A DNA stretch of 56,397 nucleotides, from positions 1 through 56,397 of the forward strand of contig CANFTO010000001.1 in NCBI GenBank assembly GCA_947449945.1, read 5' to 3'. This document shows positions 30,356 to 56,397 of the stretch, one piece after another. Positions within the stretch are counted from its first letter, which is position 1. Every line of letters starts with the position of its first letter. Below the pieces are notes generated by a model, which saw nothing but the letters and a program-made list of their open reading frames with translations, ran no database searches and was not told the origin of the DNA. Both the position numbers and the translations under genes were made by a program. The DNA comes from Actinomycetota bacterium (GTDB taxonomy: Bacteria; Actinomycetota; Actinomycetes; S36-B12).

Positions 30356-31024
30356 TTACGAGTACGTCAGCAATTCAACAGGAACACGTGAGCGTAGTTC
30401 GTCCACGCTCATTGAAAATGTTTCGCGCACGTACACCGCATCATTTTCAAGAATGAATGTTGCAACGTCGGTATAAATACGACTTACACAACCAAGCCCC
30501 GTGAGTGGGTACGTGCATTCTGTCACGAGCTTTGATGAGCCATCCTTTGCGAATAAGGTCATCATTGTGTAGACATCCTTGGCGCCAACTGCCAAATCCA
30601 TCGCTCCACCGACCGCGGGAATGGAATCATCTCCACCCGTGCTCCAGTTTGCTAGGTCGCCTTGAGCTGACACCTGGAAAGCGCCCATAACGCATACATC
30701 GAGATGTCCGCCGCGCATCATCGCGAATGAATCCGCATGGTGAAAATATGCAGTGCCTGGAAGCTCGGTTACTGGAATCTTTCCAGCATTTATCAAGTCA
30801 AGATCAATGGCATCGCCAACGGCTTGAGGGCCCATGCCAAGCATGCCGTTTTCTGTGTGCAAAATAACGCCGCGTTCAGGAGTGAGGTAATCAGACACCT
30901 TCGTTGGTTGCCCAATTCCCAAGTTCACAAATGAATTTGCCGGGATGTCCTCGGCGACCAACTTTGCCATTGCATCGCGATTAAGAGGTGCGGCATCAAG
31001 ATGTTCAACTGTATGGAAACTCAT
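30356..31024 (-). CDS. 3-oxoacid (3-oxoadipate/acetoacetate) CoA-transferase subunit B
   Basis: 222 aa with a SENG-like TENGMLGMGP active-site glutamate motif. 4-nt overlap with subunit A. Confidence 0.85.
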   Translation of the reverse strand: MSFHTVEHLDAAPLNRDAMAKLVAEDIPANSFVNLGIGQPTKVSDYLTPERGVILHTENGMLGMGPQAVGDAIDLDLINAGKIPVTELPGTAYFHHADSFAMMRGGHLDVCVMGAFQVSAQGDLANWSTGGDDSIPAVGGAMDLAVGAKDVYTMMTLFAKDGSSKLVTECTYPLTGLGCVSRIYTDVATFILENDAVYVRETFSMSVDELRSRVPVELLTYS

Positions 31025-31710
31025 GCTTTTGCCTTTCCGTGAGTTGCATCTGCATCGACCTGCACGACAGTGTCAACATAAATACAAGGAGTCACGATGA
31101 TCTCTGGGTCAAGTGCTCCGGTGTCAACAATTTCGGATACTTGCACGATCGAAGCGTTGGCTGCCGCCGCCATGATCGGGCCGAAGTTACGAGCAGTCTT
31201 TCGATATACAAGGTTGCCCATGCCATCGGAGATGTGTGCTTTCACTAGTGCAAAATCACCGCGGATAGGGAGTTCAAGTACATACTCCTTGCCGTCAAAC
31301 ATGCGCGATTCCTTGCCAATAGCCAGTGGAGTTCCAGCTGAAGTGCGTGTGTAGAAACCAGCAATGCCAGCGCCGCCAGCGCGGATTCTTTCTGCCAGGG
31401 TTCCCTGTGGGACAACTTCCAATTCAATCTTCCCGGAACGGTAGAGATCATCAAAGATGTAACTGTCTACCTGGCGAGGGAAGGAGCAGATGATGCGTGA
31501 GACCAGGCCCGCACCCAAGAGTGCTGCGAGACCAACATCGCCGTTGCCCGCATTGTTATTGACCACAGTGAGATTGCCGGCACCATGACGACGCAGCGCG
31601 TCAATCAATTCAATAGGTTGACCGGCTGTGCCAAAGCCACCAATGAGTACCGTTGAGCCTTCAGTAATTGCAGAGACAGCCGCGTCAGCGCTCTGAGCAA
31701 TCTTCAACAT
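31021..31710 (-). CDS. 3-oxoacid CoA-transferase subunit A
   Basis: 229 aa with GSTVLIGGFG..G.P and GTLAERIRAGGAGI motifs. Confidence 0.85.
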   Translation of the reverse strand: MLKIAQSADAAVSAITEGSTVLIGGFGTAGQPIELIDALRRHGAGNLTVVNNNAGNGDVGLAALLGAGLVSRIICSFPRQVDSYIFDDLYRSGKIELEVVPQGTLAERIRAGGAGIAGFYTRTSAGTPLAIGKESRMFDGKEYVLELPIRGDFALVKAHISDGMGNLVYRKTARNFGPIMAAAANASIVQVSEIVDTGALDPEIIVTPCIYVDTVVQVDADATHGKAKA

Positions 31711-31727
31711 GTGATTCCTTCAGTGCG

Positions 31728-32912
31728 CTAGAGGGTAGTGTTTTCAAGTACGACAGCAAGGCCTTGGCCTACGCCGATACAAATAGCTGCGACTCCCCAT
31801 CGGTGGCCGCCAGCCCGCATGCTCTTAGCAAGAGTGCCAAGAATGCGTCCGCCGGAAGCGCCAAGCGGATGACCAAGTGCAATTGCACCACCGTGTTGGT
31901 TAACGATTGCTGGATCAATGCCCCACGCATCAAGACAGACAAGTGATTGCACTGCAAAGGCTTCATTAAGTTCAACGCTGCCAACATCTGACCAACTAAT
32001 ACCGGCGCGCTTCAGTGCTTTATTCGCAGCTTCAACTGGTGCGTAGCCAAAGCGCTGTGGAACAAGTGCTTCAACACCGCGACCAGCAATACGCGCAATA
32101 GGCTGCCTACCAATAGTGGCTGCTGCGGCTTCTGATCCAAGAAGTACGGCGGAAGCGCCGTCACTCAGTGGAGAAGCATTGCCGGCAGTAATTGTTCCAG
32201 GTGTGCGAAACGATGGCTTCAATTTTGCAAGGGATTCCACTGTTGTTGATGGCCGAATACTTTCATCACGTGCAAGGTCGGTTCCGTCAACTGATACGAC
32301 GAGGTCGTCATAGAATCCTGCATCCCACGCTGCATTTGCGCGTTGATGTGACAAAGCAGCAAATTCATCTTGACGTTCGCGGCTCACCCCGAATTCTTCT
32401 TGGAGCTGCTCGTTGCATTCGCCCAAGGATGCTGTCCATTCAGCTGGCATCTTTGAATTTACTAAGCGCCAGCCAAGCGTGGTGGAGTGCAAGGTTGCAT
32501 TTCCGGCAGGAAAGGTTGCTTCTGGTTTTTGCATGACCCACGGTGCGCGACTCATGGATTCAACGCCACCAGTAACGAGAATTTCGGCATCTCCAGTTTC
32601 AATTTGTCGCGATGCCATAAGTGCAGCATCAAGGCTTGAACCGCAGAGTCGATTCACCGTCGTACCTGCAACTGACATCGGCAATCCCGCAAGCAAGGCT
32701 GCCATGCGACCGACGTTGCGATTTTCTTCACCAGCGCCATTGGCATTACCAAAGACCACTTCTTGAATCTGTGCTGGATCAAGTTCTGGAGCGCGCGCTG
32801 CAATCGAAGCCACAACGGTGGCAGCGAGATCATCGGGGCGAACACTGGCTAAGGCACCACCAAAGCGGCCGAATGGCGTGCGCACTGCGTCGTAGATAAA
32901 AGCGGAGGTCAT
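31728..32912 (-). CDS. acetyl-CoA C-acyltransferase (PcaF/PaaJ-like 3-oxoadipyl-CoA thiolase)
   Basis: IYDAVRTPFGRFGG, NRLCGSSLDA (active Cys) and the C-terminal GGGQG-like CIGVGQG. I trimmed the start to ATG 32912. Confidence 0.9.
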   Translation of the reverse strand: MTSAFIYDAVRTPFGRFGGALASVRPDDLAATVVASIAARAPELDPAQIQEVVFGNANGAGEENRNVGRMAALLAGLPMSVAGTTVNRLCGSSLDAALMASRQIETGDAEILVTGGVESMSRAPWVMQKPEATFPAGNATLHSTTLGWRLVNSKMPAEWTASLGECNEQLQEEFGVSRERQDEFAALSHQRANAAWDAGFYDDLVVSVDGTDLARDESIRPSTTVESLAKLKPSFRTPGTITAGNASPLSDGASAVLLGSEAAAATIGRQPIARIAGRGVEALVPQRFGYAPVEAANKALKRAGISWSDVGSVELNEAFAVQSLVCLDAWGIDPAIVNQHGGAIALGHPLGASGGRILGTLAKSMRAGGHRWGVAAICIGVGQGLAVVLENTTL

Positions 32913-32967
32913 AGTGGTGAAGTCTCGTCTCGCAGCTGGAATTATTCGGTCAGGGGTCAATTACTTC

Positions 32968-32983: not shown

Positions 32984-33134
32984 CATTTAAATATCAATCT
33001 CGCGGGAGTCTTGTATTTTCTTGGCCCAGATGAAGGGGTGGGCGATTTTTTGAAGATTTCCCATTCGTTTGGAATCCTTTGCTAAAGTCGATTCTCGAGC
33101 AGGAATTCTAATTTTTCAGAATCAGGGGTACGCA

Positions 33135-33857
33135 GTGTCAAAACGTGGTGAATCGAAATCCCTATCGGCTGACGTGTATTCCAGAATTCGCGAAGAAATC
33201 TACAACGGCACCTTGGCGCCGGGCTCCCGTCTCCAACCTTCGGTCTTGGGCGAGCGCTACAACGCGAGCACCACAGTCATTCGTGAGGCGCTGGCCCTTC
33301 TGGCTGGTGAGCGGTTGGTGCAATCGCGTACTGGTCAGGGTTTCTTTATTCCAATGATTAATAAGGACGAGCTCGTCGATCTCACCACGGTGTTATGCCA
33401 TGTGGAGGGTTTGGCCCTACGGATGTCGATGGAGCGCGGTGGCTTGGAGTGGGAGTCTTCTCTGATTGCAGCGCATCACCGATTGGCCCGCACCCCGCGT
33501 CGCACGGAAAAGAACCCAGATCGCTATTCCCAGGATTGGTCGAATGCACATAAGGAATTCCACGCCACCTTGCTGGGCGCGTGTGATGTGCCGCTCCTAC
33601 TAGATATGTGTCAGCAACTCATGCTCGCGACTGAGCTGTACCGCGTATGGGTCAGCCCGCTGGTCACTCATAACAAGCGTGATTACGCCGGAGAACATGC
33701 GGCACTACTCGAGGCGGTCCTCGCCGGCGAAGCCGACAGGGCAGTTTCCCTCTTAAATGAACACGCGCGCACCACGGCAAATATGATTATTGAGAACTGG
33801 CCAGAAGATACGGAAGCCATGATCGCTGACGGCATTGCGAAGTACGGCGTCGAGTAA
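33135..33857 (+). CDS. GntR family transcriptional regulator (FadR/FCD subfamily)
   Basis: N-terminal wHTH (VYSRIREEIYNGTLAPGSRL...ERYNASTTVIREAL) plus an all-helical FCD-type C-domain. I chose GTG 33135, which follows AGGGG; the track start is 33069. Confidence 0.8.
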   Translation: MSKRGESKSLSADVYSRIREEIYNGTLAPGSRLQPSVLGERYNASTTVIREALALLAGERLVQSRTGQGFFIPMINKDELVDLTTVLCHVEGLALRMSMERGGLEWESSLIAAHHRLARTPRRTEKNPDRYSQDWSNAHKEFHATLLGACDVPLLLDMCQQLMLATELYRVWVSPLVTHNKRDYAGEHAALLEAVLAGEADRAVSLLNEHARTTANMIIENWPEDTEAMIADGIAKYGVE

Positions 33858-33984: not shown

Positions 33985-34584
33985 ATGTCATTCATCCTTA
34001 GCCGAAAGGTCCTCATGGAAGACGCCTCTGCTGCATTAAAAGCCGAGCTTGAACCCTTCTTGAATAAGCCGGGAGCTCGTCAATTTACTGCGATTGAAAT
34101 TGAAAAGCAGTTCGTCTGGGATTACTGCTCGGCAGTTGAAGATGGCAATCCGGTGTATTGGGATGAAGAGGTTGCCAAGAAGTCGCGCTTTGGTCGACTC
34201 ATTGCTCCACCCAACACCTTGATGACCTTGAACCGGCCGGCGCATTGGTTGCCAAAGGACCAACAGGACAAGGCTGAGGAAGTAGCAGCAGCGCTACCTC
34301 CATCACCTCAAGCACAGGCCCGCGAGATTTTGGCAAATCATGGGTTCACAACGGTCACAGTGGTGAATCGCGAAGAGGAATATTTCGAGCCCTTTGGCCC
34401 AGGTGATGGTCGTCTAGCAATGGAAGATCGCTTCGTTGCTGTGAGTGACATCAAGACCACCAAGGTTGGTCCTGGCGTGTTTTTTACTTACGAAATTGAT
34501 TACTACACCGAGCGCGACAATCGACTTGTCGGTCGCGCACGTAACGTCACTTTGATTTACAACGGCAGCGGAGCAACAAAATGA
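33985..34584 (+). CDS. MaoC-like hydratase, N-terminal-type hot-dog subunit (FAS1-DH-like)
   Basis: I assigned this from the hot-dog-length protein, the GNPVYWDEE motif, and the 4-nt overlap with the downstream MaoC subunit. The alternative start ATG 34015 has a better SD. Confidence 0.65.
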   Translation: MSFILSRKVLMEDASAALKAELEPFLNKPGARQFTAIEIEKQFVWDYCSAVEDGNPVYWDEEVAKKSRFGRLIAPPNTLMTLNRPAHWLPKDQQDKAEEVAAALPPSPQAQAREILANHGFTTVTVVNREEEYFEPFGPGDGRLAMEDRFVAVSDIKTTKVGPGVFFTYEIDYYTERDNRLVGRARNVTLIYNGSGATK

Positions 34585-35012
34585 CCCACCATGCATCCAT
34601 TGACTTTGCATCAATCAACGAAGGCGACGCGCTCCCAAATCTCACCTTCGAGGTGAGTTACACGACCCTTGCTCAAGATGTTTCTGGAACGCGTGATTAC
34701 TACCCAATTCATCATGACCCAGAGTTTGCAAAAGCTGGTAACGCACGCAATATCTTCCTGAACACGATGTGGTACCAGGGCATGGTGAACCGATTCGTCT
34801 CGGAGTGGGCAGGGTATGAATCCTTCTTACGCAAACTCAGTGTTGACATGAAGTCACATGGTTGCCCGGGTGACACACTCACCGTTCGTGGAACCGTTTT
34901 GGCGACACGCACCGATGATCAGGGTCGCAAGCTCGTTGATCTTGATGTACGCATGGATAACCAGCTTCAGCCGGATGTGCTGTTGTCAAAGGTCACTGTA
35001 GAAATCCCGTAA
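34581..35012 (+). CDS. MaoC family dehydratase (C-terminal-type hot-dog subunit)
   Basis: DYYPIHHDPEFAK hydratase motif, 143 aa. Confidence 0.75.
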   Translation: MTHHASIDFASINEGDALPNLTFEVSYTTLAQDVSGTRDYYPIHHDPEFAKAGNARNIFLNTMWYQGMVNRFVSEWAGYESFLRKLSVDMKSHGCPGDTLTVRGTVLATRTDDQGRKLVDLDVRMDNQLQPDVLLSKVTVEIP

Positions 35013-35033
35013 GACAATTTGAATGGTGAAGTG

Positions 35034-36209
35034 ATGTCGAAGACTGGTCCAGCTCGTACTATTTTCGATCCAGAGCATGATGAATTTCGTGCGTTTGTTC
35101 GTGAGTTCCTTGAGCGCGAAGTAGCACCTCACCACGAGCGTTGGGAAGAGCAAGGCCGCGTCGATAAAGAGTTCTATGCGGTGGCTGCTGAAAAGGGCAT
35201 CGTCGGTTTCTGGGTTCCTCAAGAGTTCGGCGGCTTGGGCATTGAGGATTTCCGTTACAACGTGGTGATCCAAGAAGAACTGGGCAAGATGGCTTTCAGC
35301 GCTCCATCTATTCGTTTGTATAACGACATCATTGCTCCCTATCTCTTGAATCTCACCAATGACGAGCAAAAGCAGCGATGGTTGCCAGGCCAAGCAAAGG
35401 GCACTTTCACATTTTCACTGGGTCTATCTGAACCAGGTGCAGGAAGTGACCTTGCCGGTGCGCGTACGAGTGCAGTGCGAGATGGTGACGGCTGGATTGT
35501 TAACGGCTCAAAGATTTTCATCACCAATGGTTTGAACTCTGATGCAACTATCGTGTTTTGCAAGACCAATCCTGATGCGGGGCATCGAGGTTTCAGTCTG
35601 CTTGTTGTTGAAGATGGCATGGAAGGGTTCAAACGCGGCCGCAAATTGAAGAAGATCGGCATGGCAGGTCAAGACACTGCTGAACTCTTCTTCGAAGATG
35701 TGCGCGTTCCGGAAGCGAACCTGCTCGGCGAAGAAGGCCAAGGGTTCTACTACCTAATGATGAATTTGGGTGTTGAGCGATTAGCCATTGCACTTGCTGC
35801 CCTGTCACAAGCACGTCAGGTCTTTGACGACACCTTGGATTACGTAAAAACTCGTGAGGCCTTTAAGCAACCAATTGGAACCTTCCAAGCCAATAAGCAT
35901 GTGATGGCAACTTTTTCCACTGAGCTCGACATTGCTCAGGTGTATGTCGATTCATTGATCACCAAGGTGCTTGACGGGACACTGAGCGATATTGAAGCGT
36001 CAAAGGCGAAGTGGTGGGTGACTGAACTTGGTAAGCGTGTGATCGACGGCTGCCTACAACTTCATGGCGGTTACGGGTACATGCTCGAGTACCCAGTTGC
36101 TAAGGCGTACATCGATTATCGCTACATGACTATTGGTGGAGGTAGCACCGAGATCATGAAGGAAATGATCGGTAACGATCTTGGACTTGCGTGGCGTAAC
36201 CGTGGCTAA
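35034..36209 (+). CDS. acyl-CoA dehydrogenase
   Basis: LSEPGAGSDLA, FITNG and the C-terminal GGGSTEIMKEMI motifs. Confidence 0.9.
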   Translation: MSKTGPARTIFDPEHDEFRAFVREFLEREVAPHHERWEEQGRVDKEFYAVAAEKGIVGFWVPQEFGGLGIEDFRYNVVIQEELGKMAFSAPSIRLYNDIIAPYLLNLTNDEQKQRWLPGQAKGTFTFSLGLSEPGAGSDLAGARTSAVRDGDGWIVNGSKIFITNGLNSDATIVFCKTNPDAGHRGFSLLVVEDGMEGFKRGRKLKKIGMAGQDTAELFFEDVRVPEANLLGEEGQGFYYLMMNLGVERLAIALAALSQARQVFDDTLDYVKTREAFKQPIGTFQANKHVMATFSTELDIAQVYVDSLITKVLDGTLSDIEASKAKWWVTELGKRVIDGCLQLHGGYGYMLEYPVAKAYIDYRYMTIGGGSTEIMKEMIGNDLGLAWRNRG

Positions 36210-36645
36210 CTTCTCCGAGGTCATCACTGTTGAAGATCGTTTGGCGATTCTGGACATGTTTGCTCGTCAATCCCATTGCATCGATAGTGGGGATGCCGCT
36301 GGTTGGGCGGCCACGTATGCACTCGATGGATCGTTCCATTCGCCGACCTACAAGCTCACCGCCACTGGTCGACCAGCGCTCACTGAGTTCGCTGAGAATT
36401 CAAATTCAGGGGCACGATCACGAGGCGAGCAATTTCGACACCATGTTTCGGCAGTAATGCTCACCCCGAAAACCCCAACCGAAGTCACGTCGGTGAGTTA
36501 TCTCATGATTTTGGCAACCACACTGGATGGCACTCGGGTTGATCGAAGTGTGAGAATGTTCGACGAACTTAGAAAAGTCGAAGGGGAGTGGCTCGTGGCA
36601 TCGCGCACCGTGCTTCGCGACGATTCCGAACTGCAACCTAAGTAA
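36202..36645 (+). CDS. NTF2-like (SnoaL_4-type) protein
   Basis: VEDRLAILDMFARQSHCIDSGD is typical of SnoaL-like NTF2 proteins. I chose GTG 36202, which overlaps the ACAD stop; the track TTG start is at 36181. Confidence 0.6.
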   Translation: MANFSEVITVEDRLAILDMFARQSHCIDSGDAAGWAATYALDGSFHSPTYKLTATGRPALTEFAENSNSGARSRGEQFRHHVSAVMLTPKTPTEVTSVSYLMILATTLDGTRVDRSVRMFDELRKVEGEWLVASRTVLRDDSELQPK

Positions 36646-36671: not shown

Positions 36672-37508
36672 ATGAAATTTGTGACCTTTAAGGCCGATGG
36701 CCAGACTCGTATTGGTGCTTTCGATGGCGTCAGTGTCACTGAACTCAGCAGCCTGCCTGCAGGCGTGACCGATCTACGCGGGCTTCTCACTGCGGTGCCA
36801 CCAGCGGACCTTCCCAAGGTGGAGGCTCATGGAAAGACATGGGATCTCGCGGATGTTGAATTACTTCCAGTCATCCCAAACCCCAACAAGATCATCTGCG
36901 TTGGCGTGAATTACCGATCGCATCGCGAAGAAACTGGCCAAGATCCAAACCTGAAGCCAACAATCTTCACGCGCTTTGCCGACACCCAAATTGCGCACGG
37001 TGCTGTAGTTACGCACCCTTCAGCAACTGACAGCTTTGACTATGAAGGCGAACTTGCAGTCATCATTGGCCGGGATGCTAAGGATGTTGCTGCAGCTGAT
37101 GCGTGGAGCGTTGTTGCGGGATTTGCTCCCTACAACGACCTCACCGCTCGCGATTGGCAGAAGCATTCAACACAGTGGATTCCTGGAAAGAATTTCCCAG
37201 AGACCGGCGCATTTGGCCCGGCAATGGTGACCTTGGATGAAATTGCTGATGTTCCTTCAGTTGAACTCACCACTCGCGTCAATGGTGACGTACGACAGAA
37301 CGCAACCCTTGCCGACATGATCTTCGATATTCCTGCACTCATTGAATACATCACCGGATTCACCCCACTTGCTCCAGGCGATGTGATTGTTTCTGGAACA
37401 CCTGGTGGTGTTGGCAAGTTCATGACTCCACCGACCTACCTCAAGGCAGGCGACGTCGTGGAAATTGAGCTGAGCGGTGTTGGTCTGTTGGTGAACACGA
37501 TCGGCTAG
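36672..37508 (+). CDS. fumarylacetoacetate hydrolase (FAH) family protein
   Basis: MKFVTF...RIGAF N-domain, then NKIICVGVNYRSH, DYEGELAVIIG and GTPGGVG motifs. Confidence 0.85.
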   Translation: MKFVTFKADGQTRIGAFDGVSVTELSSLPAGVTDLRGLLTAVPPADLPKVEAHGKTWDLADVELLPVIPNPNKIICVGVNYRSHREETGQDPNLKPTIFTRFADTQIAHGAVVTHPSATDSFDYEGELAVIIGRDAKDVAAADAWSVVAGFAPYNDLTARDWQKHSTQWIPGKNFPETGAFGPAMVTLDEIADVPSVELTTRVNGDVRQNATLADMIFDIPALIEYITGFTPLAPGDVIVSGTPGGVGKFMTPPTYLKAGDVVEIELSGVGLLVNTIG

Positions 37509-37520: not shown

Positions 37521-37558
37521 GAAGAAGGGCCCTGCAGATATCTGCTGGGCCCTTCTTC
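37521..37558. terminator. bidirectional stem-loop terminator
   Basis: GAAGAAGGGCCC-tGCAGATATCTGCt-GGGCCCTTCTTC, between convergent genes. Confidence 0.55.
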
Positions 37559-37571: not shown

Positions 37572-37979
37572 TTAGCGCACCTTGCGGAAGTACGGCAGGA
37601 ACTTTGTGCCGTCTCCTACTGGAAGCATTTCTGCCTGCACACGATCGCCGATTGCAAGATCGGCAGCGTCAGCTTCATCAACGAGACGCGAGAGCAAACG
37701 GATTCCTTCATCGAGACGAACATCGATGAAGGCGTATGGAGCCTCATCTACAAATGATGGATTTTCCGGACGACGCACGATTGAGAAGGTGTAAATCTCA
37801 CCAGCGCCGGAGAGGTGCTCGTAGATAAAGTTTTCACTCATGCACGTTGGGCACACTGGCTTTGGGTAGTACCAAAGGCGATTGCAATCTTGGCAACGTT
37901 GCGCGCTAAGGATTCCCTTTTCACCATTTGCCCAGTAGTCGCGATCCCAAGGAACGGTCTTTGGTGTTGGCCTAGTCAT
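37572..37979 (-). CDS. Zn-ribbon OB-fold protein (DUF35)
   Basis: CQDCNRLWYYPKPVCPTC zinc ribbon followed by an OB-fold. 8-nt overlap with the upstream thiolase-like gene. I trimmed the start from 37997. Confidence 0.8.
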   Translation of the reverse strand: MTRPTPKTVPWDRDYWANGEKGILSAQRCQDCNRLWYYPKPVCPTCMSENFIYEHLSGAGEIYTFSIVRRPENPSFVDEAPYAFIDVRLDEGIRLLSRLVDEADAADLAIGDRVQAEMLPVGDGTKFLPYFRKVR

Positions 37980-48830: not shown

Positions 48831-49520
48831 ATGTATTTCCCAAATGACCAAGCTAAAGCCGTCGGCCAAATAGTGGCATCGCGTCATAGCTGCCGCGCAT
48901 TCCTTCCTGCGCAAGTACCAGCCGCGCAGATTCGTGACATCTTCACCTTGGCCCAGCAAACTCCCTCGTGGTGCAACACCCAGCCGTGGCAGGTCAATTT
49001 CCTGTCCGGTTCGGCTACTGCGGAATTCTCACGCCTGTTGAAGGTTCATACGGAACGCGACCCGGCAGGCAACCCAGATCTGAATTTCCCTGCGCATTAC
49101 CCAGGTGAATTCGGAAAACGTCGCAAGGCATCTGGCAAGGCACTCTTTGAAGCTGTTGGTTTAGCGCGCGACGACCTTGATGGGCGAACTCGGCAATCTG
49201 CATTGAATTATGAATTCTTCGGTGCGCCGCACGTGGCAATAATTTCGGTCCCTAAGACCCTCAACGATTACGCACTCGTTGACGCTGGTGGTTACGTGTC
49301 AACACTTATGTTGATTGCCACGAGTTTTGGTTTAGGAACAATCGCGCAAGCTTCTATCGCGAGATATTCGCCAGTTGTGCGCAACTACTTCACACTTGAT
49401 GAGGAGCAGCGCATCGTGTGCGCGGTTTCATTTGGATATGCAGATGAAAGCAATTCTGCTAATAGCTTTCGCACCGAACGCAGTTCGATCGATGATGTTG
49501 CGATCGGCCTTCCTCAATAA
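48831..49520 (+). CDS. nitroreductase family protein
   Basis: SRHSCRAFLP...PSWCNTQPW N-terminal nitroreductase signature, 229 aa. Confidence 0.8.
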   Translation: MYFPNDQAKAVGQIVASRHSCRAFLPAQVPAAQIRDIFTLAQQTPSWCNTQPWQVNFLSGSATAEFSRLLKVHTERDPAGNPDLNFPAHYPGEFGKRRKASGKALFEAVGLARDDLDGRTRQSALNYEFFGAPHVAIISVPKTLNDYALVDAGGYVSTLMLIATSFGLGTIAQASIARYSPVVRNYFTLDEEQRIVCAVSFGYADESNSANSFRTERSSIDDVAIGLPQ

Positions 49521-50600
49521 CTACTTCCAGCTCTTCACTACTTCAGCAAGAGTGGACTTGGTGCCGCTTCGTTGTTCATCGAAGTCAATCGGATGCGATG
49601 AAAGTCGCGGAGCTGGAGCAGCCTTTAGCTCACCGTTGCGTCGCGTAATCGTGTTGCGCGCCTTCATGTGTGGATGATCCGGCGCTTCAAGGTGCGTAAG
49701 CACTGGAGTGACGCAGGCGTCAATGCCATCAAAACGCGCCGTCCAACTATCGCGATCATCAGTCTTAAAGATCGCATCAAATTGTTCTCGGAGGGCAGGC
49801 CAGTTCGCCTTGTCATCTCTATCTAGCAACGTGGCTTCATCGAGTCCTATGACCTTGATGAAAGCCGCATAGAACTGAGGCTCCATCGCACCGACGGCCA
49901 TGAACTTGCCATCACGACATTCATAGACGCGGTAGTACGGCGCACCACCATCAAGTGAGTTTGATTCACGCTCCGTTGAAAATGCGCCACCATTCGACAT
50001 TTCTAAGAATGGCTGCATCAGCACACTTGCGCCGTCGACCACCGCTGCATCGATGACTTGACCTATACCGGTGGTGGTTCGCTCAAAGAGTGCGGTCAAG
50101 ATGCCGACAATCAGAAAGAGGGAACCGCCGCCGTAATCACCAATGAAACTCATCGGAGGAACCGGTGCTTCCTTAGGCCCGATGGAATGCAGCACACCAG
50201 TCAAGCTGATGTAGTTAATGTCATGGCCAGCCATCTTGGCCATAGGGCCTTCTTGGCCCCAACCTGTCATTCGTCCGTAAATCAGACGTGAATTTCGATC
50301 AAGGCACACATCGGGACCAAGGCCCAAGCGTTCAGTAACTCCAGGTCGCATGCCTTCCAGAAATACGTCTGCTGATTCAACAAGGTCTAGGACCATTGCC
50401 ACATCATCAGCATTCTTCAGATCCGCATATACCTCGGTGCCCAGAAATGGCGACCATCCAGTGAGAGCTGCAGGATTTGAAGGCGGACGAGAGATGCGCA
50501 CTACTTCAGCACCCATATTGGCCAGCATGTTGACTGCGAAAGGCACGGGACCAAGGCCAGCAAGTTCAACAATTCGAATTCCAGCGAGCGGACCAGGCAT
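49521..50600 (-). CDS. type III CoA-transferase, alpha-methylacyl-CoA racemase-like
   Basis: PLAGIRIVELAGLGPVPFAVNMLANMGAEVVRISRP. The length (359 aa) and motifs resemble the Mcr/Amacr subgroup. Confidence 0.8.
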   Translation of the reverse strand: MPGPLAGIRIVELAGLGPVPFAVNMLANMGAEVVRISRPPSNPAALTGWSPFLGTEVYADLKNADDVAMVLDLVESADVFLEGMRPGVTERLGLGPDVCLDRNSRLIYGRMTGWGQEGPMAKMAGHDINYISLTGVLHSIGPKEAPVPPMSFIGDYGGGSLFLIVGILTALFERTTTGIGQVIDAAVVDGASVLMQPFLEMSNGGAFSTERESNSLDGGAPYYRVYECRDGKFMAVGAMEPQFYAAFIKVIGLDEATLLDRDDKANWPALREQFDAIFKTDDRDSWTARFDGIDACVTPVLTHLEAPDHPHMKARNTITRRNGELKAAPAPRLSSHPIDFDEQRSGTKSTLAEVVKSWK

Positions 50601-50680: not shown

Positions 50681-51373
50681 GTGACGGTGAGTGTTCCTTC
50701 GGTGAGTCAGCAGGCCCATCGACCTTCTGGGCGAATGTCTGCTCAGGTATATGAACTCTTGAAATCCCGGCTGGTAAGCGGCGAATTTGCACCGCAATCG
50801 TGGATTCGAGTGGAAACCCTCAAAGTTGAATACGGCGTGAGTAAGCAGCCGATCATGGATGCGCTACGAATGCTGAATGCCGATGGCCTGGTAGAGATTA
50901 TTCCTCAGGTCGGCTGTCAGGTTGCAAGCTACACAGCCCTGGAAATCGCTGACTTCTTCAGCATGTTTGGTGGAATTGAAGGCTCGATTGCCGCTGCGGC
51001 TGCGATTCGGGCAACGCCTGATCAACTGAATGAACTGCGGCGCATCTCGAGTGAAATAGCTCAATTGCGCGCGCTCACTGACAGCGCACAACGTTCGCAG
51101 GCTTACTTGCATCTGAATCGTCAATTCCACGCAACGATCTATGCCATGGCCAATTCTCGAATCATGACTGAATTGTCACAGCGCATGCATGATCTCTCAG
51201 ATTTTTTGATCAACACTTCTGGTCTTCCAGGGGCCTTGAGTGGGGCGCTCAACGATCGACATGACGACCATGAACACATCATTGACGCATTAGCCGCCGG
51301 CGATGCGGACCTTGCGCGATCTTTGACACACGAGCACATCGCGACAACGGCCCACATCACTCACCGCGAGTAA
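50681..51373 (+). CDS. GntR family transcriptional regulator (FCD subfamily)
   Basis: wHTH (VYELLKSRLVSGEF...YGVSKQPIMDALRML) plus an FCD domain. The track start is GTG; ATG 50735 is an alternative. Confidence 0.8.
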   Translation: MTVSVPSVSQQAHRPSGRMSAQVYELLKSRLVSGEFAPQSWIRVETLKVEYGVSKQPIMDALRMLNADGLVEIIPQVGCQVASYTALEIADFFSMFGGIEGSIAAAAAIRATPDQLNELRRISSEIAQLRALTDSAQRSQAYLHLNRQFHATIYAMANSRIMTELSQRMHDLSDFLINTSGLPGALSGALNDRHDDHEHIIDALAAGDADLARSLTHEHIATTAHITHRE

Positions 51374-51401: not shown

Positions 51402-53186
51402 CTAATTACTGAGAACGGCCTTTAATGCGGCATTGAGTTGTTGCGTTGCCTCGGCTTGATCGCTGACATCGTTGAGTTGACGCCAAGCAATGAAGCCATC
51501 AGGACGCACAAGCAATGCTCCCGCTTCATCGATCTCTCGAATGCGAGCCCAGTCACCATAAAGGTCGCGTGCGTTAGGCGAATCGATGACCACGGCTTGC
51601 AGGAATGGCAGGTCCAATGCGTTCACTGCGTCTGCCCACGCCTTGCCCGCAAGTCCGGTAACGAGTGAAAGTTTTCCCTTGCCAACAACATCCATCGTTG
51701 AGACTCGAAGGCCGGCTTTATCAACGAGCCAAGCATGCGGAATCTTTGCGCCTGGGCGAGTGGATGCTTGGTAATACAGCTCGCGATCTTGTTCCCAGGT
51801 TTCAACGGTGCCATCAGACACCACGGCGTTTGACTCGTAACGATGATTGACTTCAACGCCAAGAGCGTTGAATTCGTAGTTGCGCAATTCAACAGCATCG
51901 CGAAGTGCCGCGCGAGCTTGTGCACCTTCGAGTGTTGGATCGGCCAATTTGTCCAAGCCACCTTGAATGCGATCGGCAGCTTCAGGTGCTGCAAAGGCTT
52001 CGCGAAGGGGAGCGTAGGTGTGACGTGATTTATTTGCACGTGTCACGATTTGTTCGCCAACGGGAACGCGTTCTTGGCTATAGGAATCAAGGAGTTCTGG
52101 TCCGGCATAGCCGTTAATGACATATGCCAGTTTCCAAGCCACATTAAACCCATCGCTAATGCAGGTGTTCGAACCAAGCCCGCCTGATGGTGGATGACGG
52201 TGCACTGCGTCTCCTCCGCAGAGCACGCGGCCTTTTTGGAAGTGCGTAGCATGCGATTGATTGACAAACCATGTTGACGACCACTTCACATCGATCTCTA
52301 GATCAGGATCCCCGACAAGCGCACGGATCTTGCGGGTGACTGTCTCAACATCTGCATCAGGTGCAGTGAATTGCACAGGTCCGCTGTGGAGATTATTTGC
52401 TTCCTTGACTTCTTCGACCTTGTTCATGTCAAAGCCCCAGCCAGCGATCCACTCGTTCCATGGGCGAACAGTGCGTAGGAGCCCCATACCAATCTCACCG
52501 AAGTCAGCCTCTGGCGTCATCACCCAATACAAAATGCTTGGACGGTGTTCTACGTATTTCGAAAGATCGGCATGGAACAGTGTGTACAGAGTTCCCGCGC
52601 GCGCAAGGTGCCCTTCGAACGGTAGATCAAGATCTTCAACGATTTTGGACTGTGCACCGTCAGCGCCGACGAGGTACTTGGATCGAATTTCGTATTCGCG
52701 TCCGGTCAGACGATCACGAAGCGTGGTCGTGACGCCATCGGCGTCTTGGACATGTGACACATATTCAGTGTTCATGCTGATCTGGGCCCCGCGCTTAGCT
52801 GCGTTATTCATCAAGATCGGTTCGACGATGTCTTGAGGCACATCGAGCAGGGTGCATGGGCTGGCCTGGAGATAGTTAGTTGCACGATCAGGTCCGGTGC
52901 CCCAGGTGCGCAGTCGGGCTACTTCTTCTCCGGCCAGGCTGGTGGTAAACAAGGTGTCACCCATGAGTTCCCAAGGCACGGCATATTTGGTTACTTCACC
53001 TTCAACACCTAGATCGCGCAACACTTCTGCTGCACGCTGGTTTGTGATGTGAGCGCGTGGTGTATTCGCAAGCCAGTTCCACTTTGAGACCACATGCACC
53101 TTGACGCCATAGGTAGCCAACGCAAGTGCAGTTGTCATACCGGTTGGGCCGGAACCCACAACGAGTACGTCCGTTTCGAAAGTCAT
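51402..53186 (-). CDS. PheA/TfdB-family FAD-dependent aromatic (phenol-type) monooxygenase
   Basis: DVLVVGSGPTGMT, GGDAVHRHPPSGGLGSNTCISDGFNVAWKL, and a thioredoxin-like C-terminal extension (594 aa). Confidence 0.85.
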   Translation of the reverse strand: MTFETDVLVVGSGPTGMTTALALATYGVKVHVVSKWNWLANTPRAHITNQRAAEVLRDLGVEGEVTKYAVPWELMGDTLFTTSLAGEEVARLRTWGTGPDRATNYLQASPCTLLDVPQDIVEPILMNNAAKRGAQISMNTEYVSHVQDADGVTTTLRDRLTGREYEIRSKYLVGADGAQSKIVEDLDLPFEGHLARAGTLYTLFHADLSKYVEHRPSILYWVMTPEADFGEIGMGLLRTVRPWNEWIAGWGFDMNKVEEVKEANNLHSGPVQFTAPDADVETVTRKIRALVGDPDLEIDVKWSSTWFVNQSHATHFQKGRVLCGGDAVHRHPPSGGLGSNTCISDGFNVAWKLAYVINGYAGPELLDSYSQERVPVGEQIVTRANKSRHTYAPLREAFAAPEAADRIQGGLDKLADPTLEGAQARAALRDAVELRNYEFNALGVEVNHRYESNAVVSDGTVETWEQDRELYYQASTRPGAKIPHAWLVDKAGLRVSTMDVVGKGKLSLVTGLAGKAWADAVNALDLPFLQAVVIDSPNARDLYGDWARIREIDEAGALLVRPDGFIAWRQLNDVSDQAEATQQLNAALKAVLSN

Positions 53187-53210: not shown

Positions 53211-54149
53211 TTAGGCCTGTTGAGCAAAGGCGATGCCGAAGCCGGCGACCCATTCATCAATTGCTCGGTAATAGGAAAGTGAAGTGTTGTATTTACCTGC
53301 GACACCGAGGGCTGCATACGCCGCGATCCAGCAGCGCACTTCGTGACCTGAGTGACCGCCTTGTTCGGTCATCCATTCAGTAGTCCAATTGTGAATCGGT
53401 GAAAGATCCCCTGACGTCAAAATGTTCATGAGGTCGGTATCCCACTTTGGGTTCAGCGGCATGATGTTTGCGCGACCAGCAGCAAATTCAATTCCTGTGG
53501 CAATCACTCGTGCTTCGTGTGCAGCCTGTGCATCGGCTGGGCGATTACGGCCAGCAATGAGGCGTTCTTGAACTTCAGGTGGAACTTCCGAAAAGCGTGG
53601 CACAGGTGGGTCATGTGAAAGGCCACCTGATGCGATGAGCAGGACTTTCTTATCAAGGTTTGCAATGACTCGACCAACTGCTTCACCGAGCACGATGGAG
53701 CGAAGAGGCGGCCCCATCGGTTCTGCGACTGAGTTAATGATGATGGGAACGATCGGCTTGGCATCGAGTGATCCAAGTAGGAGTTCTAGTGATTGGGCGA
53801 CGCCATGATCAACGAGCAAGCGCTCGCTATAAGCAATATCTACGTCTGACGCGAAGAGCTCTTGAACAATTGCTTCACCCAATTCACGGTCAACATTGAG
53901 CGGGCCGGAGAGTGTGCCGTAGTCACCAAACGAACGGGCCTGAAAGCCAACACAAAACGGCGGCATCATGTCGTAAAGTAATCCGTTGTAATGATCCGGC
54001 GCGAACATCACTATGACATCCGGATCAAACGCAGCGATCTTCGCTCGAGCATCTGCAAAGACCGCTTCAACTTCAGCCCGGACCCCAGGTCCAGGTTCGT
54101 TGAAGTTCATTAATGGGGTGTGGGCCATTGCGCAGATTGCCAGCGGCAT
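53211..54149 (-). CDS. mhpB: class III (LigB-type) extradiol dioxygenase, MhpB-like (2,3-dihydroxyphenylpropionate 1,2-dioxygenase family)
   Basis: Blocks IAAFDPDVIVMFAPDHYNG..YDMMPPFC, VDHGVAQSLELLLG, SGGLSHDPPVP, PLNPKWD and YYRAIDEWVAGFG closely follow E. coli MhpB as I recall it. Confidence 0.75.
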   Translation of the reverse strand: MPLAICAMAHTPLMNFNEPGPGVRAEVEAVFADARAKIAAFDPDVIVMFAPDHYNGLLYDMMPPFCVGFQARSFGDYGTLSGPLNVDRELGEAIVQELFASDVDIAYSERLLVDHGVAQSLELLLGSLDAKPIVPIIINSVAEPMGPPLRSIVLGEAVGRVIANLDKKVLLIASGGLSHDPPVPRFSEVPPEVQERLIAGRNRPADAQAAHEARVIATGIEFAAGRANIMPLNPKWDTDLMNILTSGDLSPIHNWTTEWMTEQGGHSGHEVRCWIAAYAALGVAGKYNTSLSYYRAIDEWVAGFGIAFAQQA

Positions 54150-54295: not shown

Positions 54296-55705
54296 ATGTC
54301 CCTTCCGGCTAACTACATCAATGGCCAATTTGCCGTGGGTACGGGTGCCTCGGTTCTTGCCATGGTCAGTTCCATTGATGGGGCATCAATGGATGAAGTG
54401 CAGGCAGGGTCAACGGGTGATGTAGACCACGCGGTGCGGGCAGCGTCGGCAGCATTCGTATCGTGGAGTGCAACCGCAACCTCTGATCGCACGGCATTTT
54501 TGCGGGCAATTGCTGACGGCATCGAAGCGCGAACGGATGAATTTGCCGAACTTGCGGTCAAAGAAGTGGGCACCACGATTGGCATCGCTAAGGCGGTCCA
54601 GGTGGGATTGGCTTTGGATGTATTGCGATCAACAGCAGATGCAATGGATGAACTGGTTCTTGAAGAACGCAGTGAAAACTTCCTCGCGGTGAAAGAACCC
54701 ATCGGTGTAGTCGGAGCCATCACTCCGTGGAACTTTCCGTTGCATCAGGTAGTAGCAAAGCTTGCTCCAGCATTAGCCACGGGATGCACGATTGTTGTGA
54801 AACCTGCAGAGCTCACAACGCTTTCATCAATCGCGCTCTTCGAAGTGATTCATCAAGTTGGGCTGCCTGCTGGCGTTGCAAATTTAGTGTGCGGCGTCGG
54901 TGCTGATGTTGGAGAAGCGCTTGCTTCACATCCACTAGTTGACATGGTGAGTTTTACCGGTTCTACCGCTGCTGGCATCCGCGTTTCAATGCTGGCAGCC
55001 AACGACGTGAAGAAAGTTGCGCTTGAACTTGGCGGAAAGTCAGCATCTGTCATCTTGGCTGACGCAGATCTTGGTCGAGCAGTGTCAAGCACGCTGGGCG
55101 GGTGCTACTTGAACTCAGGGCAAGTGTGTTCGGCTCTGACTCGGTTGATTGTTCTCAAATCACAACAACAAGAGATCGAAGCACTTCTGGAAACAGCAGT
55201 TGCGAAGTTTGCGATGGGTGACCCTTTTGATGCAGGAACGCGCGTAGGACCTGTGGCGTCAGAAGTGCAACAGCGTCGTGTTTTGCAGTACATCCAAGAC
55301 GGCATCTCAGAAGGTGCTCGCCTGCTCGCTGGAAGTGCTGTTGCGCCCGATCGTGAAGGTTTCTACGTAGCTCCAACGATTTTCACCGATGTGAAATCAG
55401 AAATGAAGATTGCACAAGAAGAAATTTTTGGGCCTGTACTCGTCGTCATTCCAGTTGACGATGAAGATGAAGCCCTTCGAGTGGCTAATGACACTGTGTA
55501 TGGACTTTCTGGAGCAGTCTGGACGAGCGACGAAGCGCGTGGCGTGAACTTTGCTCGGAAAATGCGCACTGGTCAGGTGCAGATTAATAATGGAGCCTTC
55601 AACGCGCACGCACCATTTGGGGGATACAAGAAATCGGGAATCGGCCGTGAACTTGGGAAGTACGGACTTGAGGAATATCTTGAGTACAAGGCAATTCGAT
55701 TCTGA
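54296..55705 (+). CDS. NAD(P)-dependent aldehyde dehydrogenase
   Basis: ELGGKS, GQVCSA (catalytic Cys) and EEIFGPV motifs. AAGGAG SD. Confidence 0.9.
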   Translation: MSLPANYINGQFAVGTGASVLAMVSSIDGASMDEVQAGSTGDVDHAVRAASAAFVSWSATATSDRTAFLRAIADGIEARTDEFAELAVKEVGTTIGIAKAVQVGLALDVLRSTADAMDELVLEERSENFLAVKEPIGVVGAITPWNFPLHQVVAKLAPALATGCTIVVKPAELTTLSSIALFEVIHQVGLPAGVANLVCGVGADVGEALASHPLVDMVSFTGSTAAGIRVSMLAANDVKKVALELGGKSASVILADADLGRAVSSTLGGCYLNSGQVCSALTRLIVLKSQQQEIEALLETAVAKFAMGDPFDAGTRVGPVASEVQQRRVLQYIQDGISEGARLLAGSAVAPDREGFYVAPTIFTDVKSEMKIAQEEIFGPVLVVIPVDDEDEALRVANDTVYGLSGAVWTSDEARGVNFARKMRTGQVQINNGAFNAHAPFGGYKKSGIGRELGKYGLEEYLEYKAIRF

Positions 55706-55716
55706 CAGGAAATGCG

Positions 55717-56397
55717 ATGACTTCAAGCGTGCACGTAACCCGAGATAACGGCGTAACACTCATCTCAATGCAACATGGCAAGGTCAATGCTCTTGATCTT
55801 GAACTCTTGACGCAAATACATGAGGTCTTCGCAGGTTTATCGCCAGATGAAGTAGTCGTGCTCACGGGCAATGGTCGTGCTTTTTCTGCAGGTTTGGACA
55901 TGCGCCGCCTTCTTGATGAAGACGCCCAATATTCGAATGCGTTACTGCAGGCTCTTACTGACGCGACGCTTGCAATCTTTAGGCATCCAGCTCCCGTCGT
56001 AGCCGCAGTTGAGGGCGCTGCAATCGCGGGTGGGGCTCTGCTGGCATTTGCGGCTGACTACCGCATGATGGCTGGCGGCGTTATTGGGTTGCCAGAACTC
56101 AGTGTTGGGGTTGCATTCCCACCAGCCCTTCTCGAAGTAGCGCGTTATGTCATGGGCAATGGCTTGCGGATGCATCTTCTGGGTGCGCGTGCGGTGAAAA
56201 TTGATGAAGCCTTAGCCGCCGGCTTCGTTGACGAAGTCGTGGCGCCGGAATCACTTCTTGAATTGGCGCTTTCGAATGCGCGAGAGTTGAAGAACATTCC
56301 AGCAGTGAGTTTTGCTTTGGTGAAGTCAGTCCTTCATGGCCCAACTGAGCAATGCATCGCCACCACTGACGTGAGCGTGGCAGCCCAAGTTGCCAAG
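55717..56397 (+). CDS. enoyl-CoA hydratase/isomerase (crotonase) family protein, 3' end off window
   Basis: Manual translation: MTSSVHVTRDNGVTLISMQHGKVNALD...GNGRAFSAGLDM...AAVEGAAIAGGALLAFAADYR. The frame is open to the window end. Confidence 0.8.
   Translation, partial: MTSSVHVTRDNGVTLISMQHGKVNALDLELLTQIHEVFAGLSPDEVVVLTGNGRAFSAGLDMRRLLDEDAQYSNALLQALTDATLAIFRHPAPVVAAVEGAAIAGGALLAFAADYRMMAGGVIGLPELSVGVAFPPALLEVARYVMGNGLRMHLLGARAVKIDEALAAGFVDEVVAPESLLELALSNARELKNIPAVSFALVKSVLHGPTEQCIATTDVSVAAQVAK

Follow-up and report, generated by a model that had tools for sequence, protein, structure and literature searches.

Positions 30356–56397 of contig CANFTO010000001.1 carry 26 consecutive genes (g1–g26, defined from the open reading frame (ORF) listing together with Pfam and NCBIfam), which we interpret as one modular catabolic island of an uncultured freshwater Nanopelagicales-type actinobacterium. 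Under this interpretation, to which we assign a probability of about 0.5, the island is controlled by two GntR-FCD repressors and degrades a six-membered-ring carboxylic acid, most likely a hydroxyphenyl- or an oxo/hydroxy-cyclohexyl-alkanoate. The stretch that we analyzed, called the window below, is the complete 56,397-bp contig, and its GC content is ~52% throughout. A first-pass annotation of the same DNA had placed about 27 consecutive genes in this interval; we found 26, the last of which, the crotonase-family gene g26 (55717–56397, plus strand; Pfam PF00378), is truncated by the contig end. Every domain family listed in that annotation was recovered in the Pfam and NCBIfam searches.

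One set of genes resembles the enzymes of aldolytic side-chain cleavage. The thiolase-fold protein encoded by g11 (37972–39141, minus strand) has its best PDB matches in the aldolases CtSal (9MYR, 175 bits) and TcLtp2 (6OK1, 157 bits). At the position of the nucleophilic cysteine of thiolases, g11 reads DYGGASS, with GGASS as in CtSal and TcLtp2, and the HDCF motif of SCP2 thiolases is YDDY in g11, YDCY in CtSal, and YDHF in TcLtp2, the third residue of the g11 motif differing from both characterized aldolases. With the nucleophilic cysteine missing and HDCF replaced by YDDY, we rejected the assignment of g11 as a true (SCPx) thiolase. The overlapping but unfused g10 (37572–37997, minus strand) encodes a free-standing DUF35 protein with a zinc ribbon and an OB fold (PF12172 and PF01796) and two CxxC pairs (four cysteines). 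By these motifs, g11 and g10 are a candidate cysteine-less retro-aldolase of the Sal/Ltp2 type and its DUF35 protein; in the pair that had been annotated as DUF35 plus SCPx-type thiolase, the first name holds and the second does not. The catalytic MaoC hydratase subunit g6 (34581–35012, plus strand; PF01575) matches best, at 46 bits, chain B of the Mycobacterium tuberculosis ChsH1-ChsH2 hydratase, which is ChsH1, and keeps the Asp/His pair (D-x4-H), with TRDYYPIHHD aligned to TRDFQDVHHD. In its ChsH2-N-like hot-dog partner g5 (33985–34584, plus strand; PF13452), the hydratase motif is DGNPVY, in which tyrosine replaces histidine. The predicted product of g5 and g6 is a ChsH1/ChsH2-like heteromeric hydratase with one catalytic subunit. 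An acyl-CoA (CoA, coenzyme A) dehydrogenase (ACAD) of the single-gene type with three ACAD domains (g7; 35019–36209, plus strand) and an NAD(P)-dependent aldehyde dehydrogenase (ALDH) (g25; 54296–55705, plus strand; PF00171, 522 bits) complete the set, and neither reached an NCBIfam equivalog. Together, g5/g6, g10/g11, g7, and g25 would thus reproduce the enzyme logic of aldolytic side-chain cleavage known from Scd-Shy-Sal-Sad and from the igr operon; these four types of enzyme also make up the published Scd/Shy/Sal/Sad scheme (PMC12329534). A metagenome scan anchored on the ACAD returned paralogues of 50–59% identity that lacked g5, g6, g8, and g9 as neighbours, and otherwise only a generic association of ACAD, family III CoA-transferase, and thiolase genes.

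A second set of genes points to ring hydroxylation, ring cleavage, and lower-pathway steps. Residues 3–593 of g23 (51402–53186, minus strand; PF01494 and PF21274) align with residues 5–584 of HbpA (2-hydroxybiphenyl 3-monooxygenase) at 507 bits, and g23 also matches TfdB (2,4-dichlorophenol 6-monooxygenase) at 448 bits; both matches are full length, and the thioredoxin-like C-terminal domain is included. MhpA models scored ≤144 bits against cutoffs of 390–1135, and we rejected g23 as an MhpA-type 3-hydroxyphenylpropionate hydroxylase. The full-length HbpA/TfdB matches and the failure of the MhpA models point to an HbpA/TfdB-type flavin enzyme that probably ortho-hydroxylates substituted phenols. 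The adjacent g24 (53211–54149, minus strand) passes the equivalog model for MhpB, the LigB-superfamily 3-carboxyethylcatechol 2,3-dioxygenase (NF009910, 426.5 bits; cutoff 291), and is 60% identical to the annotated MhpB proteins of Rhodococcus jostii and R. opacus. The earlier impression that hydroxylase and dioxygenase recall the mhp route is therefore correct for the MhpB equivalog and incorrect for the hydroxylase, which is HbpA/TfdB-like and not MhpA-like.

Upstream in the island, g8 and g9 may act on the ring-fission product. For the SnoaL_4/NTF2-like protein g8 (36181–36645, plus strand, with the true start probably near 36202; PF13577), only 20 homologues were detectable among 5.8 billion proteins. 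Its AlphaFold2 model (predicted local distance difference test score, pLDDT, 89) has an NTF2 fold, and Foldseek placed Rv3472 and ActVI-ORFA/Aln2 closest, with Rieske beta subunits and BaiE ranking lower. We considered g8 as the missing Rieske beta subunit and rejected this role on present evidence, as its Ring_hydroxyl_B match was just 26 bits and Foldseek put NTF2 enzymes first. At least three of the four non-self contexts that we read tie g8 to the island's enzyme set; the most distant homologue (43% identical, locus L176) has an unrelated gene context. The product of g9 (36672–37508, plus strand; PF01557) belongs to the fumarylacetoacetate hydrolase (FAH) family, is HpaG/acylpyruvase-like, and has PDB matches among FAH-family hydrolases, decarboxylases, and hydratases. 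FAH-family enzymes are established C–C hydrolases of 1,3-diketo acids, acylpyruvase (PMC3196145) being an example. At the left end of the island, g1 (30356–31024, minus strand) and g2 (31021–31710, minus strand) encode subunits B (PcaJ/ScoB type) and A (PcaI/ScoA type) of a 3-oxoacid CoA-transferase, with the catalytic-Glu motif of g1 present as LHTENG. The pcaJ_scoB and pcaI_scoA subfamily models passed by g1 (TIGR02428, 250.5 bits; cutoff 243.6) and g2 (TIGR02429, 331.6 bits; cutoff 128.5) do not separate PcaIJ from ScoAB. The neighbouring g3 (31728–32960, minus strand) is a degradative thiolase (TIGR01930, 421 bits; cutoff 240) whose best matches are PcaF models, at 450 and 443 bits, under their cutoffs of 605 and 597.

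Between these sets lies a module of Rieske, dehydrogenase E1, ligase, and flavoprotein genes. In g12 (39440–40885, plus strand, with the true start probably at 39452; Pfam Rieske and Ring_hydroxyl_A), the motif CPH-X17-CGFH (C99, H101, C119, and H122), the H221/H226 iron ligands, and conserved aspartates are invariant across 19 homologues. Judged by these motifs, g12 is predicted to be a complete Rieske non-haem-iron oxygenase without a close characterized relative: its closest relative outside the lineage, in locus L090, is 50–52% identical, and its top PDB match, CntA, covers residues 35–229 only, taking in the Rieske domain but no more than the beginning of the catalytic domain. A literature lead, the Rieske protein Nov2c228 of Sphingobium Chol11, gave no link to g12 by sequence. 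No Rieske beta-subunit gene was found beside g12 or beside its homologues in L008, L087, L090, L091, or the other neighbourhoods read; no ferredoxin or reductase for g12 was found in the window, yet homologue clusters carry one. Downstream, g13 (40958–41932, plus strand; PF00676) and g14 (41911–42915, plus strand; NF006667, 366 bits, cutoff 321; PF02779 and PF02780) encode the E1 alpha and E1 beta subunits of a dehydrogenase dependent on thiamine diphosphate (TPP). The GDG...NN TPP motif is present in g13, and its PDB matches are the E1 alpha subunits of pyruvate dehydrogenase (PDH) and branched-chain 2-oxoacid dehydrogenase (BCKDH). The AMP-forming acyl-CoA ligase g15 (42943–44571, plus strand; PF00501 and PF13193) has PRK06155 as its best model (457 bits, under the cutoff of 722). 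The conserved small protein g16 (44586–44939, plus strand; 111 aa from 44604) has no match in Pfam or NCBIfam; its conservation in the sister-species scaffold L005 is 98%, and weak homologues occur close to the Rieske genes of L011 and L022 and also in L172. By eye, g16 (44604–44939) resembles an EthD-like alpha/beta-barrel, and its single-sequence model was unusable (pLDDT 50).

The flavoprotein g17 (45011–46432, plus strand) is a soluble FAD_binding_2 protein of the fumarate-reductase/urocanate-reductase/KstD superfamily. It scored ≤178 bits on KstD models (cutoffs 788–793) and 99–104 bits on ChcC1/ChcC2 models (cutoffs 900–1000), and its homologues in L090, L091, and L172 are 34–40% identical. 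Three family III CoA-transferases (PF02515) are encoded on the minus strand by g18 (46421–47710), g19 (47656–48843), and g21 (49521–50600). In L090 (3021–5450), a fusion of the g19 and g18 orthologues, with the g19 part N-terminal, forms one 809-aa family III CoA-transferase, which suggests that g18 and its probable partner g19 form a heteromer. The nitroreductase-family flavoprotein gene g20 (48831–49520, plus strand; PF00881) has homologues that adjoin E1 alpha/beta genes in the Sphingopyxis loci L038 and L040.

We assessed recurrence of the Rieske neighbourhood by a GTDB genome scan, from which matches were listed, followed by a tblastn matrix. Among the matches listed, Rieske, E1 alpha, E1 beta, and FAD_binding_2 genes occurred together in Mycobacterium species, other Actinomycetota, Acidimicrobiales, and Sphingopyxis, often accompanied by ligase, family III CoA-transferase, ACAD, nitroreductase, ECH, or short-chain dehydrogenase/reductase (SDR) genes. 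On a plasmid of Streptomyces sp. NBC_00564 (L087, 11992–17783), genes for a Rieske protein, a 2Fe-2S ferredoxin, an FAD protein, E1 alpha, E1 beta, and a 78-aa stand-alone lipoyl protein are found together with ligase, MhpA-like hydroxylase, CoA-transferase, and ECH genes; the ferredoxin and the lipoyl protein hint at how an orphan E1 alpha/beta pair and an orphan Rieske oxygenase are served in other hosts. The distant metagenome contig L090, the closest relative outside the lineage by its Rieske protein, carries within 21 kb counterparts of g4 (62%), g5 (59%), g6 (62%), g7 (66%), g8 (55%), g18 (58%), g19 (51%), g21 (49%), and g23 (40%), along with the g12 orthologue, an FAH-family gene truncated by the end of the locus, and genes for two FAD_binding_2 proteins, an NMO, and a Peripla_BP_6 ABC transporter. 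The g8 orthologue in this contig adjoins ACAD and FAH genes.

Loci with ring-cleavage genes link other parts of the island. In L089, which was anchored on MhpB, genes for MhpB (66%), hydroxylase (64%), SDR, FAH, and SnoaL proteins were found. A cultured Microbacterium (L172; GCA_000746195.1, contig JQKT01000009.1, 2536–19575) has an operon encoding an SDR, an FAD_binding_2 protein (473 aa), a KstD/ChcC1-like FAD_binding_2 protein (570 aa), an extradiol dioxygenase, an FAH protein (62%), a hydroxylase (60%), a SnoaL_4 protein (60%), and a major facilitator superfamily (MFS) transporter, with the g9 orthologue between the dioxygenase and hydroxylase genes. A second run ~5 kb further on contains hydroxylase, FAH, and CoA-transferase A/B genes (56% to g2 and 51% to g1), with FAH directly upstream of the 3-oxoacid CoA-transferase genes. 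The same Microbacterium locus also encodes a citryl-CoA-lyase-like protein and a g16-like small protein, and a short citrate-synthase-like gene occurs in L089 too. The first-pass annotation had named two findings that would speak against its view of the cluster: blocks that sit together only in this genome, and a characterized cluster of high identity and conserved synteny. Orthologues of the blocks recur together in L090, L172, L089, L087, and L091, and genes of different window operons adjoin elsewhere; co-localization is therefore not peculiar to this genome. No characterized cluster of the second kind turned up.

Proteins identical or near-identical to those of the window were found on more than 70 public contigs, the longest of 1.11 Mb, under the names 'Candidatus Nanopelagicales bacterium', 'Actinomycetota bacterium', or 'freshwater metagenome'. 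On sequence grounds, we assign the window to an abundant freshwater 'Candidatus Nanopelagicales' population, that is, to an uncultured Nanopelagicales-type actinobacterium. Contig L088 is 99.9% identical to the window, has the same gene order, and extends 4.4 kb past the window end; it completes g26 (248 aa) and continues with genes for a Peripla_BP_6 solute-binding protein, an acyl-CoA thioesterase, a PhnB-like protein, and unrelated proteins. Because unrelated genes follow the PhnB-like gene, the island ends ~3 kb beyond the window, with MhpC–F still missing. The sister-species scaffold L005 (84–92% nucleotide identity) is collinear over g1–g22 except for g3. Because the same order is seen in L088 and in L005, the gene arrangement is not an assembly accident.

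Absence searches covered all scanned window ORFs of at least ~110 aa and the genes predicted on L088 in the 4.4 kb that follow the contig end. In this set we found no Rieske beta subunit, ferredoxin, or reductase, no MhpC, MhpD, MhpE, or MhpF, no HsaA–D, and no E2 or E3; among the scanned window ORFs there were no domains of PcaGH/CatA, of PcaB, PcaC, or PcaD, or of homogentisate dioxygenase. The list of missing hallmark partners in the first-pass annotation (Rieske beta subunit and reductase, MhpC/D/E/F, HsaA–D, PcaGH/CatA, and E2/E3) was thus confirmed for the scanned ORFs and the 4.4 kb beyond.

These results are consistent with the following route. Uptake would be mediated by the ABC solute-binding protein whose gene lies immediately beyond the contig end, and CoA activation by the ligase g15 or by the family III transferases g18, g19, and g21. 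The side chain would then be shortened without a thiolase by the ACAD g7, the hydratase g5/g6, and retro-aldol cleavage by g11 with g10, a sequence that would suit a side chain with a beta-carbon on which a thiolase cannot act; the predicted products are acetyl- or propionyl-CoA and an aldehyde or ketone, with the ALDH g25 oxidizing the aldehyde. The ring would be functionalized by g12, acting as a Rieske monooxygenase, and by the flavoprotein g17, and g13/g14 would carry out a TPP-dependent decarboxylation or alpha-ketol C–C cleavage with E2/E3 or a lipoyl carrier encoded elsewhere. The resulting phenol would be ortho-hydroxylated by g23 and the catechol opened by g24. Finally, the ring-fission product would be tautomerized by g8 and hydrolyzed by g9 to a beta-keto acid (3-oxoadipate or acetoacetate) and a small acid, after which g1/g2 would activate the beta-keto acid and g3 would cleave it to succinyl-/acetyl-CoA. 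These last steps would explain both the presence of PcaIJF-like genes without an intradiol pathway and the missing MhpCDEF, and they are supported by the adjacency of FAH and CoA-transferase genes, in that order, in Microbacterium; FAH and PcaIJF could plausibly stand in for MhpCDEF. On paper, a substrate of the 2,3,5-trihydroxyphenylpropionate type would give 2,4,6-trioxononanedioate and, by acylpyruvase-type hydrolysis, pyruvate and 3-oxoadipate.

Two linked proposals, both of undescribed biochemistry, arise from this route, and it is rather unlikely that they are correct. In the first, the extradiol product would pass through an NTF2-like isomerase and an FAH-family C–C hydrolase into PcaIJ and thiolase; such a pathway may use no MhpC-type serine hydrolase and may join meta-cleavage to the beta-ketoadipate end steps. 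In the second, the Rieske/E1/flavoprotein module, found in several phyla, would perform hydroxylation followed by TPP-dependent C–C cleavage or decarboxylation, and its substrates may be alicyclic or branched acyl-CoA thioesters or acids. We also considered that E1 alpha/beta decarboxylates the MhpB product directly, by analogy with the estrogen 4,5-seco route, and down-weighted this idea because the E1/Rieske module occurs in Mycobacterium without a ring-cleavage gene.

Several observations weigh against a single island with a common substrate. The Mycobacterium operon in L008 consists of SDR, E1 alpha, E1 beta, ECH, ligase, Rieske, and FAD_binding_2 genes and has no ring-cleavage gene, and the readable stretch of L090 is without E1 alpha/beta, ligase, g10/g11, g1–g3, and MhpB. 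The Rieske/E1 module alone in Mycobacterium indicates that the island is modular and not one indivisible unit, and, taken with the gaps in L090, that the modules can work apart. The core of the earlier proposal, a composite, uncharacterized CoA-thioester pathway for an aromatic or alicyclic carboxylate, survives, and the proposal is partly supported. The 56 kb contain no gene for an electron-transfer partner of g12 and none for an E2/E3 that could serve g13/g14. The textbook product of MhpB is a 1,5-dicarbonyl compound, whereas FAH enzymes prefer a 1,3-diketone; because the MhpB product is no 1,3-diketone, the FAH step requires an extra ring hydroxyl or another cleavage product. An MhpC-type hydrolase could sit elsewhere in the genome, and arguments from missing partners are weakened more generally because the Rieske family of g12 has no adjoining beta-subunit gene in the neighbourhoods read, g11 is aldolase-like, and FAH with PcaIJF is a plausible substitute. 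In L005, g3 is missing exactly, 24 bp (L005 3486–3510) replacing 1244 bp (window 31721–32964) between collinear flanks, and this gene is dispensable in the sister species. Finally, the island comprises at least eight transcription units with two regulators, the CsiR-like g4 (33069–33857, plus strand; Pfam GntR and FCD) and g22 (50681–51373, plus strand; Pfam GntR and FCD), and a search for a common GntR operator in the divergent promoter regions gave no convincing motif.

The same features could be accounted for by a catabolic 'parking lot', in which independent short pathways lie side by side with no shared substrate: a hydroxyphenylpropionate hydroxylase/MhpB pair, ScoAB with thiolase for acetoacetate or 3-oxoadipate, an aldolase-containing module for branched or alicyclic acyl-CoA, and the Rieske/E1 module. 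We regard this as a possible but not a probable arrangement. The two separate GntR regulators with many divergent promoters, the occurrence of the Rieske/E1/FAD module alone in Mycobacterium and Sphingopyxis, the variable presence of g3 between sister species, the ACAD relatives of 50–59% identity in unrelated contexts, and a fourth family III CoA-transferase with further acyl-CoA genes scattered elsewhere in the window all speak for it. Independent pathways would not, however, readily account for the neighbourhoods in other genomes, where the g8 and g9 counterparts of the 'acyl-CoA' operon adjoin g23-type and dioxygenase genes (L172 and L089), g4–g9 lie alongside family III CoA-transferase genes, g23, and g12 (L090), and FAH adjoins PcaIJ-like genes (L172), or for the tie between a protein as rare as g8 (~20 homologues) and this enzyme set in at least three of four non-self contexts.

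Two narrower readings assign the whole island to a known kind of chemistry. The first is a miniature pathway of the steroid, bile-acid, or terpenoid type, which would act on a polycyclic alicyclic acid and combine igr-like side-chain removal, KstD-like and KshA-like ring opening with aromatization, and phenol hydroxylation and meta-cleavage analogous to HsaAB/HsaC. The nearest structural relatives of g11 and g6 are indeed the steroid enzymes CtSal/TcLtp2 and ChsH1, the FAD_binding_2 superfamily of g17 includes KstD, KstD/ChcC1-like long flavoproteins are encoded directly after the Rieske gene in L008 and L090 and within the L172 operon, and, among the matches listed, Rieske homologues occur in metagenome-assembled genomes of steroid-degrading taxa. 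We nevertheless consider this pathway improbable: no KshA, KstD, or HsaA–D equivalog was reached, the PDB matches of g12 do not include KshA, the ACAD is encoded by one gene and is not of the alpha2-beta2 steroid type, the ring-cleaving enzyme is an equivalog of MhpB, which is known to act on a monocyclic catechol, and the island is far below the size needed for a 9,10-seco pathway. Least likely of all, and to our minds barely credible, is a quaternary-amine pathway of the carnitine, gamma-butyrobetaine, or glycine-betaine type, built from a CntA/GbcA-like Rieske protein, a Cai-like ligase, CaiB-type transferases, a CaiA-like ACAD, and a CaiD-like crotonase. It is suggested by the JGI names of close homologues ('glycine betaine catabolism A' and 'carnitine-CoA ligase'), by CntA as the top PDB match of g12, by CaiB/C/D models among the weak NCBIfam matches, and by a BKACE gene upstream, but all scores are far under the family cutoffs, the CntA match is partial (residues 35–229), and the HbpA-type hydroxylase, the MhpB equivalog, FAH, and the retro-aldolase would have no role in betaine catabolism. 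With scores below cutoff and aromatic enzymes that have no place there, we rejected the betaine/carnitine reading derived from automatic names.

The surroundings of the island and its non-coding sequence yielded further observations. The 30 kb upstream are an unrelated mix of ars genes and genes for an F420H2-dependent quinone reductase, alanine dehydrogenase, transporters, a family III CoA-transferase, and a BKACE protein. An arsenic-resistance-type set at 17637–20518, unrelated to the island, includes ACR3/SBF (17637–18710) and ArsR (19703–20050) with small ORFs between them, and the F420H2-dependent quinone reductase (20078–20518) adjoins it. The fourth family III CoA-transferase (3851–5131) lies beside an MFS transporter (region 2582–5131), and a BKACE-family ORF (9554–10615) overlaps a patatin-like ORF (10479–11330; region 9554–11330), both outside the island. 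A 539-aa Vgb-lyase-family beta-propeller protein (28689–30308) directly flanks the island and is conserved at this place in L005; its upstream neighbour encodes an SDR in the window and a crotonase in L005. Between the convergent g9 and g10, a perfect hairpin with a 12-bp stem (37521–37558; GAAGAAGGGCCC-N14-GGGCCCTTCTTC) is probably a bidirectional terminator. Promoter and terminator scans of the window were at or below chance, and searches of it for Rfam families and tRNAs gave no match.

Because Nanopelagicales-type actinobacteria rank with the most abundant bacteria of fresh waters, a conserved island of this kind would pinpoint a class of dissolved organic carbon that they consume; should the two linked proposals above be correct, a very abundant freshwater actinobacterium would have a dedicated pathway for aromatic or alicyclic dissolved organic matter of terrestrial origin. 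Two conserved gene associations without a published function emerge, FAH and SnoaL_4 genes beside hydroxylase and dioxygenase genes, and Rieske genes with E1 alpha/beta and flavoprotein genes. The recently defined Sal/Ltp2 aldolase group gains a sequence variant in which the motif is YDDY and DUF35 is free-standing. These results demonstrate no new kind of mechanism, and the cultured Microbacterium with orthologues makes these hypotheses directly testable.

Compared with known systems, the island shares modules with several. It resembles the mhp/hpp/ohp pathways (Escherichia coli MhpABCDEF, Rhodococcus globerulus HppABC, Rhodococcus sp. V49 OhpBCD, and the coumarin route leading into them) in having a flavin hydroxylase that would generate a 3-substituted catechol and a ring opening of the MhpB type within the LigB superfamily. 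It differs in that its hydroxylase is HbpA/TfdB-like, in that no MhpC-type hydrolase or MhpD/E/F is present in the window or just beyond, and in that, in loci orthologous to the island, FAH and SnoaL_4 genes adjoin the hydroxylase and dioxygenase genes. With the HbpA-HbpC-HbpD pathway of Pseudomonas HBP1 for 2-hydroxybiphenyl and 2-alkylphenols it shares the HbpA-like g23 and an extradiol dioxygenase next to it, but the island's dioxygenase belongs to the LigB/MhpB family and not to type I, and there is no HbpD hydrolase. The end steps of the beta-ketoadipate and homogentisate routes (PcaIJ and PcaF; FAH yielding acetoacetate, then succinyl-CoA:3-oxoacid CoA-transferase and thiolase) are matched by a CoA-transferase pair past the cutoffs, a thiolase with PcaF as its best match, and an FAH gene; in contrast to these routes, the island opens the ring by extradiol cleavage and has no intradiol dioxygenase, PcaBCD, or homogentisate dioxygenase.

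Aldolytic cleavage of steroid side chains (M. tuberculosis igr ChsE1E2-ChsH1H2-Ltp2 and proteobacterial Scd-Shy-Sal-Sad) likewise uses an ACAD, a MaoC hydratase with one catalytic subunit, a cysteine-less aldolase with DUF35, and an ALDH. In the island, however, DUF35 is a separate gene and not fused to the hydratase, the aldolase motif is YDDY and not YDCY or YDHF, the ACAD is a single gene, steroid-nucleus genes are absent, and similarity is low (46–175 bits). The acetoin and 2-oxoacid dehydrogenase complexes (AcoAB-C-L, PDH, and BCKDH) share the heterotetramer-type E1 alpha/beta with an intact TPP motif, whereas the island lacks E2/E3 and its E1 pair is embedded with Rieske, flavoprotein, and CoA ligase genes, here and in five other lineages; a stand-alone lipoyl protein occurs only in the Streptomyces copy of the module. 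The chc aromatization pathway of cyclohexanecarboxylate employs the dehydrogenase ChcB and the KstD-like desaturases ChcC1 and ChcC2. Its hydroxylase, SDR, and FAD_binding_2 desaturases acting before phenol hydroxylation have counterparts here, the long flavoprotein of L172 scoring 401 bits on the ChcC1 model, but all scores are well under the equivalog cutoffs of 900–1000 and, of the two flavoprotein types, the short one (g17) alone occurs in the window. Likeness to the ipf ibuprofen cluster (IpfF ligase, IpfAB dioxygenase acting on the CoA ester, and IpfD/IpfE) is by composition only, in the CoA ligase, the Rieske protein, and the thiolase-fold/DUF35 pair, and the lack of a Rieske beta subunit argues against membership. 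The best characterized relatives of island proteins are thus Rhodococcus MhpB (60%), HbpA (507 bits), and CtSal/Ltp2 (157–175 bits), with the other proteins under NCBIfam equivalog cutoffs. A search of the literature for a cluster of this composition found none described. Consistent with the first-pass conclusion that no single textbook pathway is matched, the island, as judged from its predicted proteins, shares single modules with mhp/hpp/ohp, Hbp, igr/Shy-Sal, Pca, homogentisate, acetoin-dehydrogenase, and chc systems and the full gene set of none; its enzyme families are all known, and it is their combination that appears not to have been described before.

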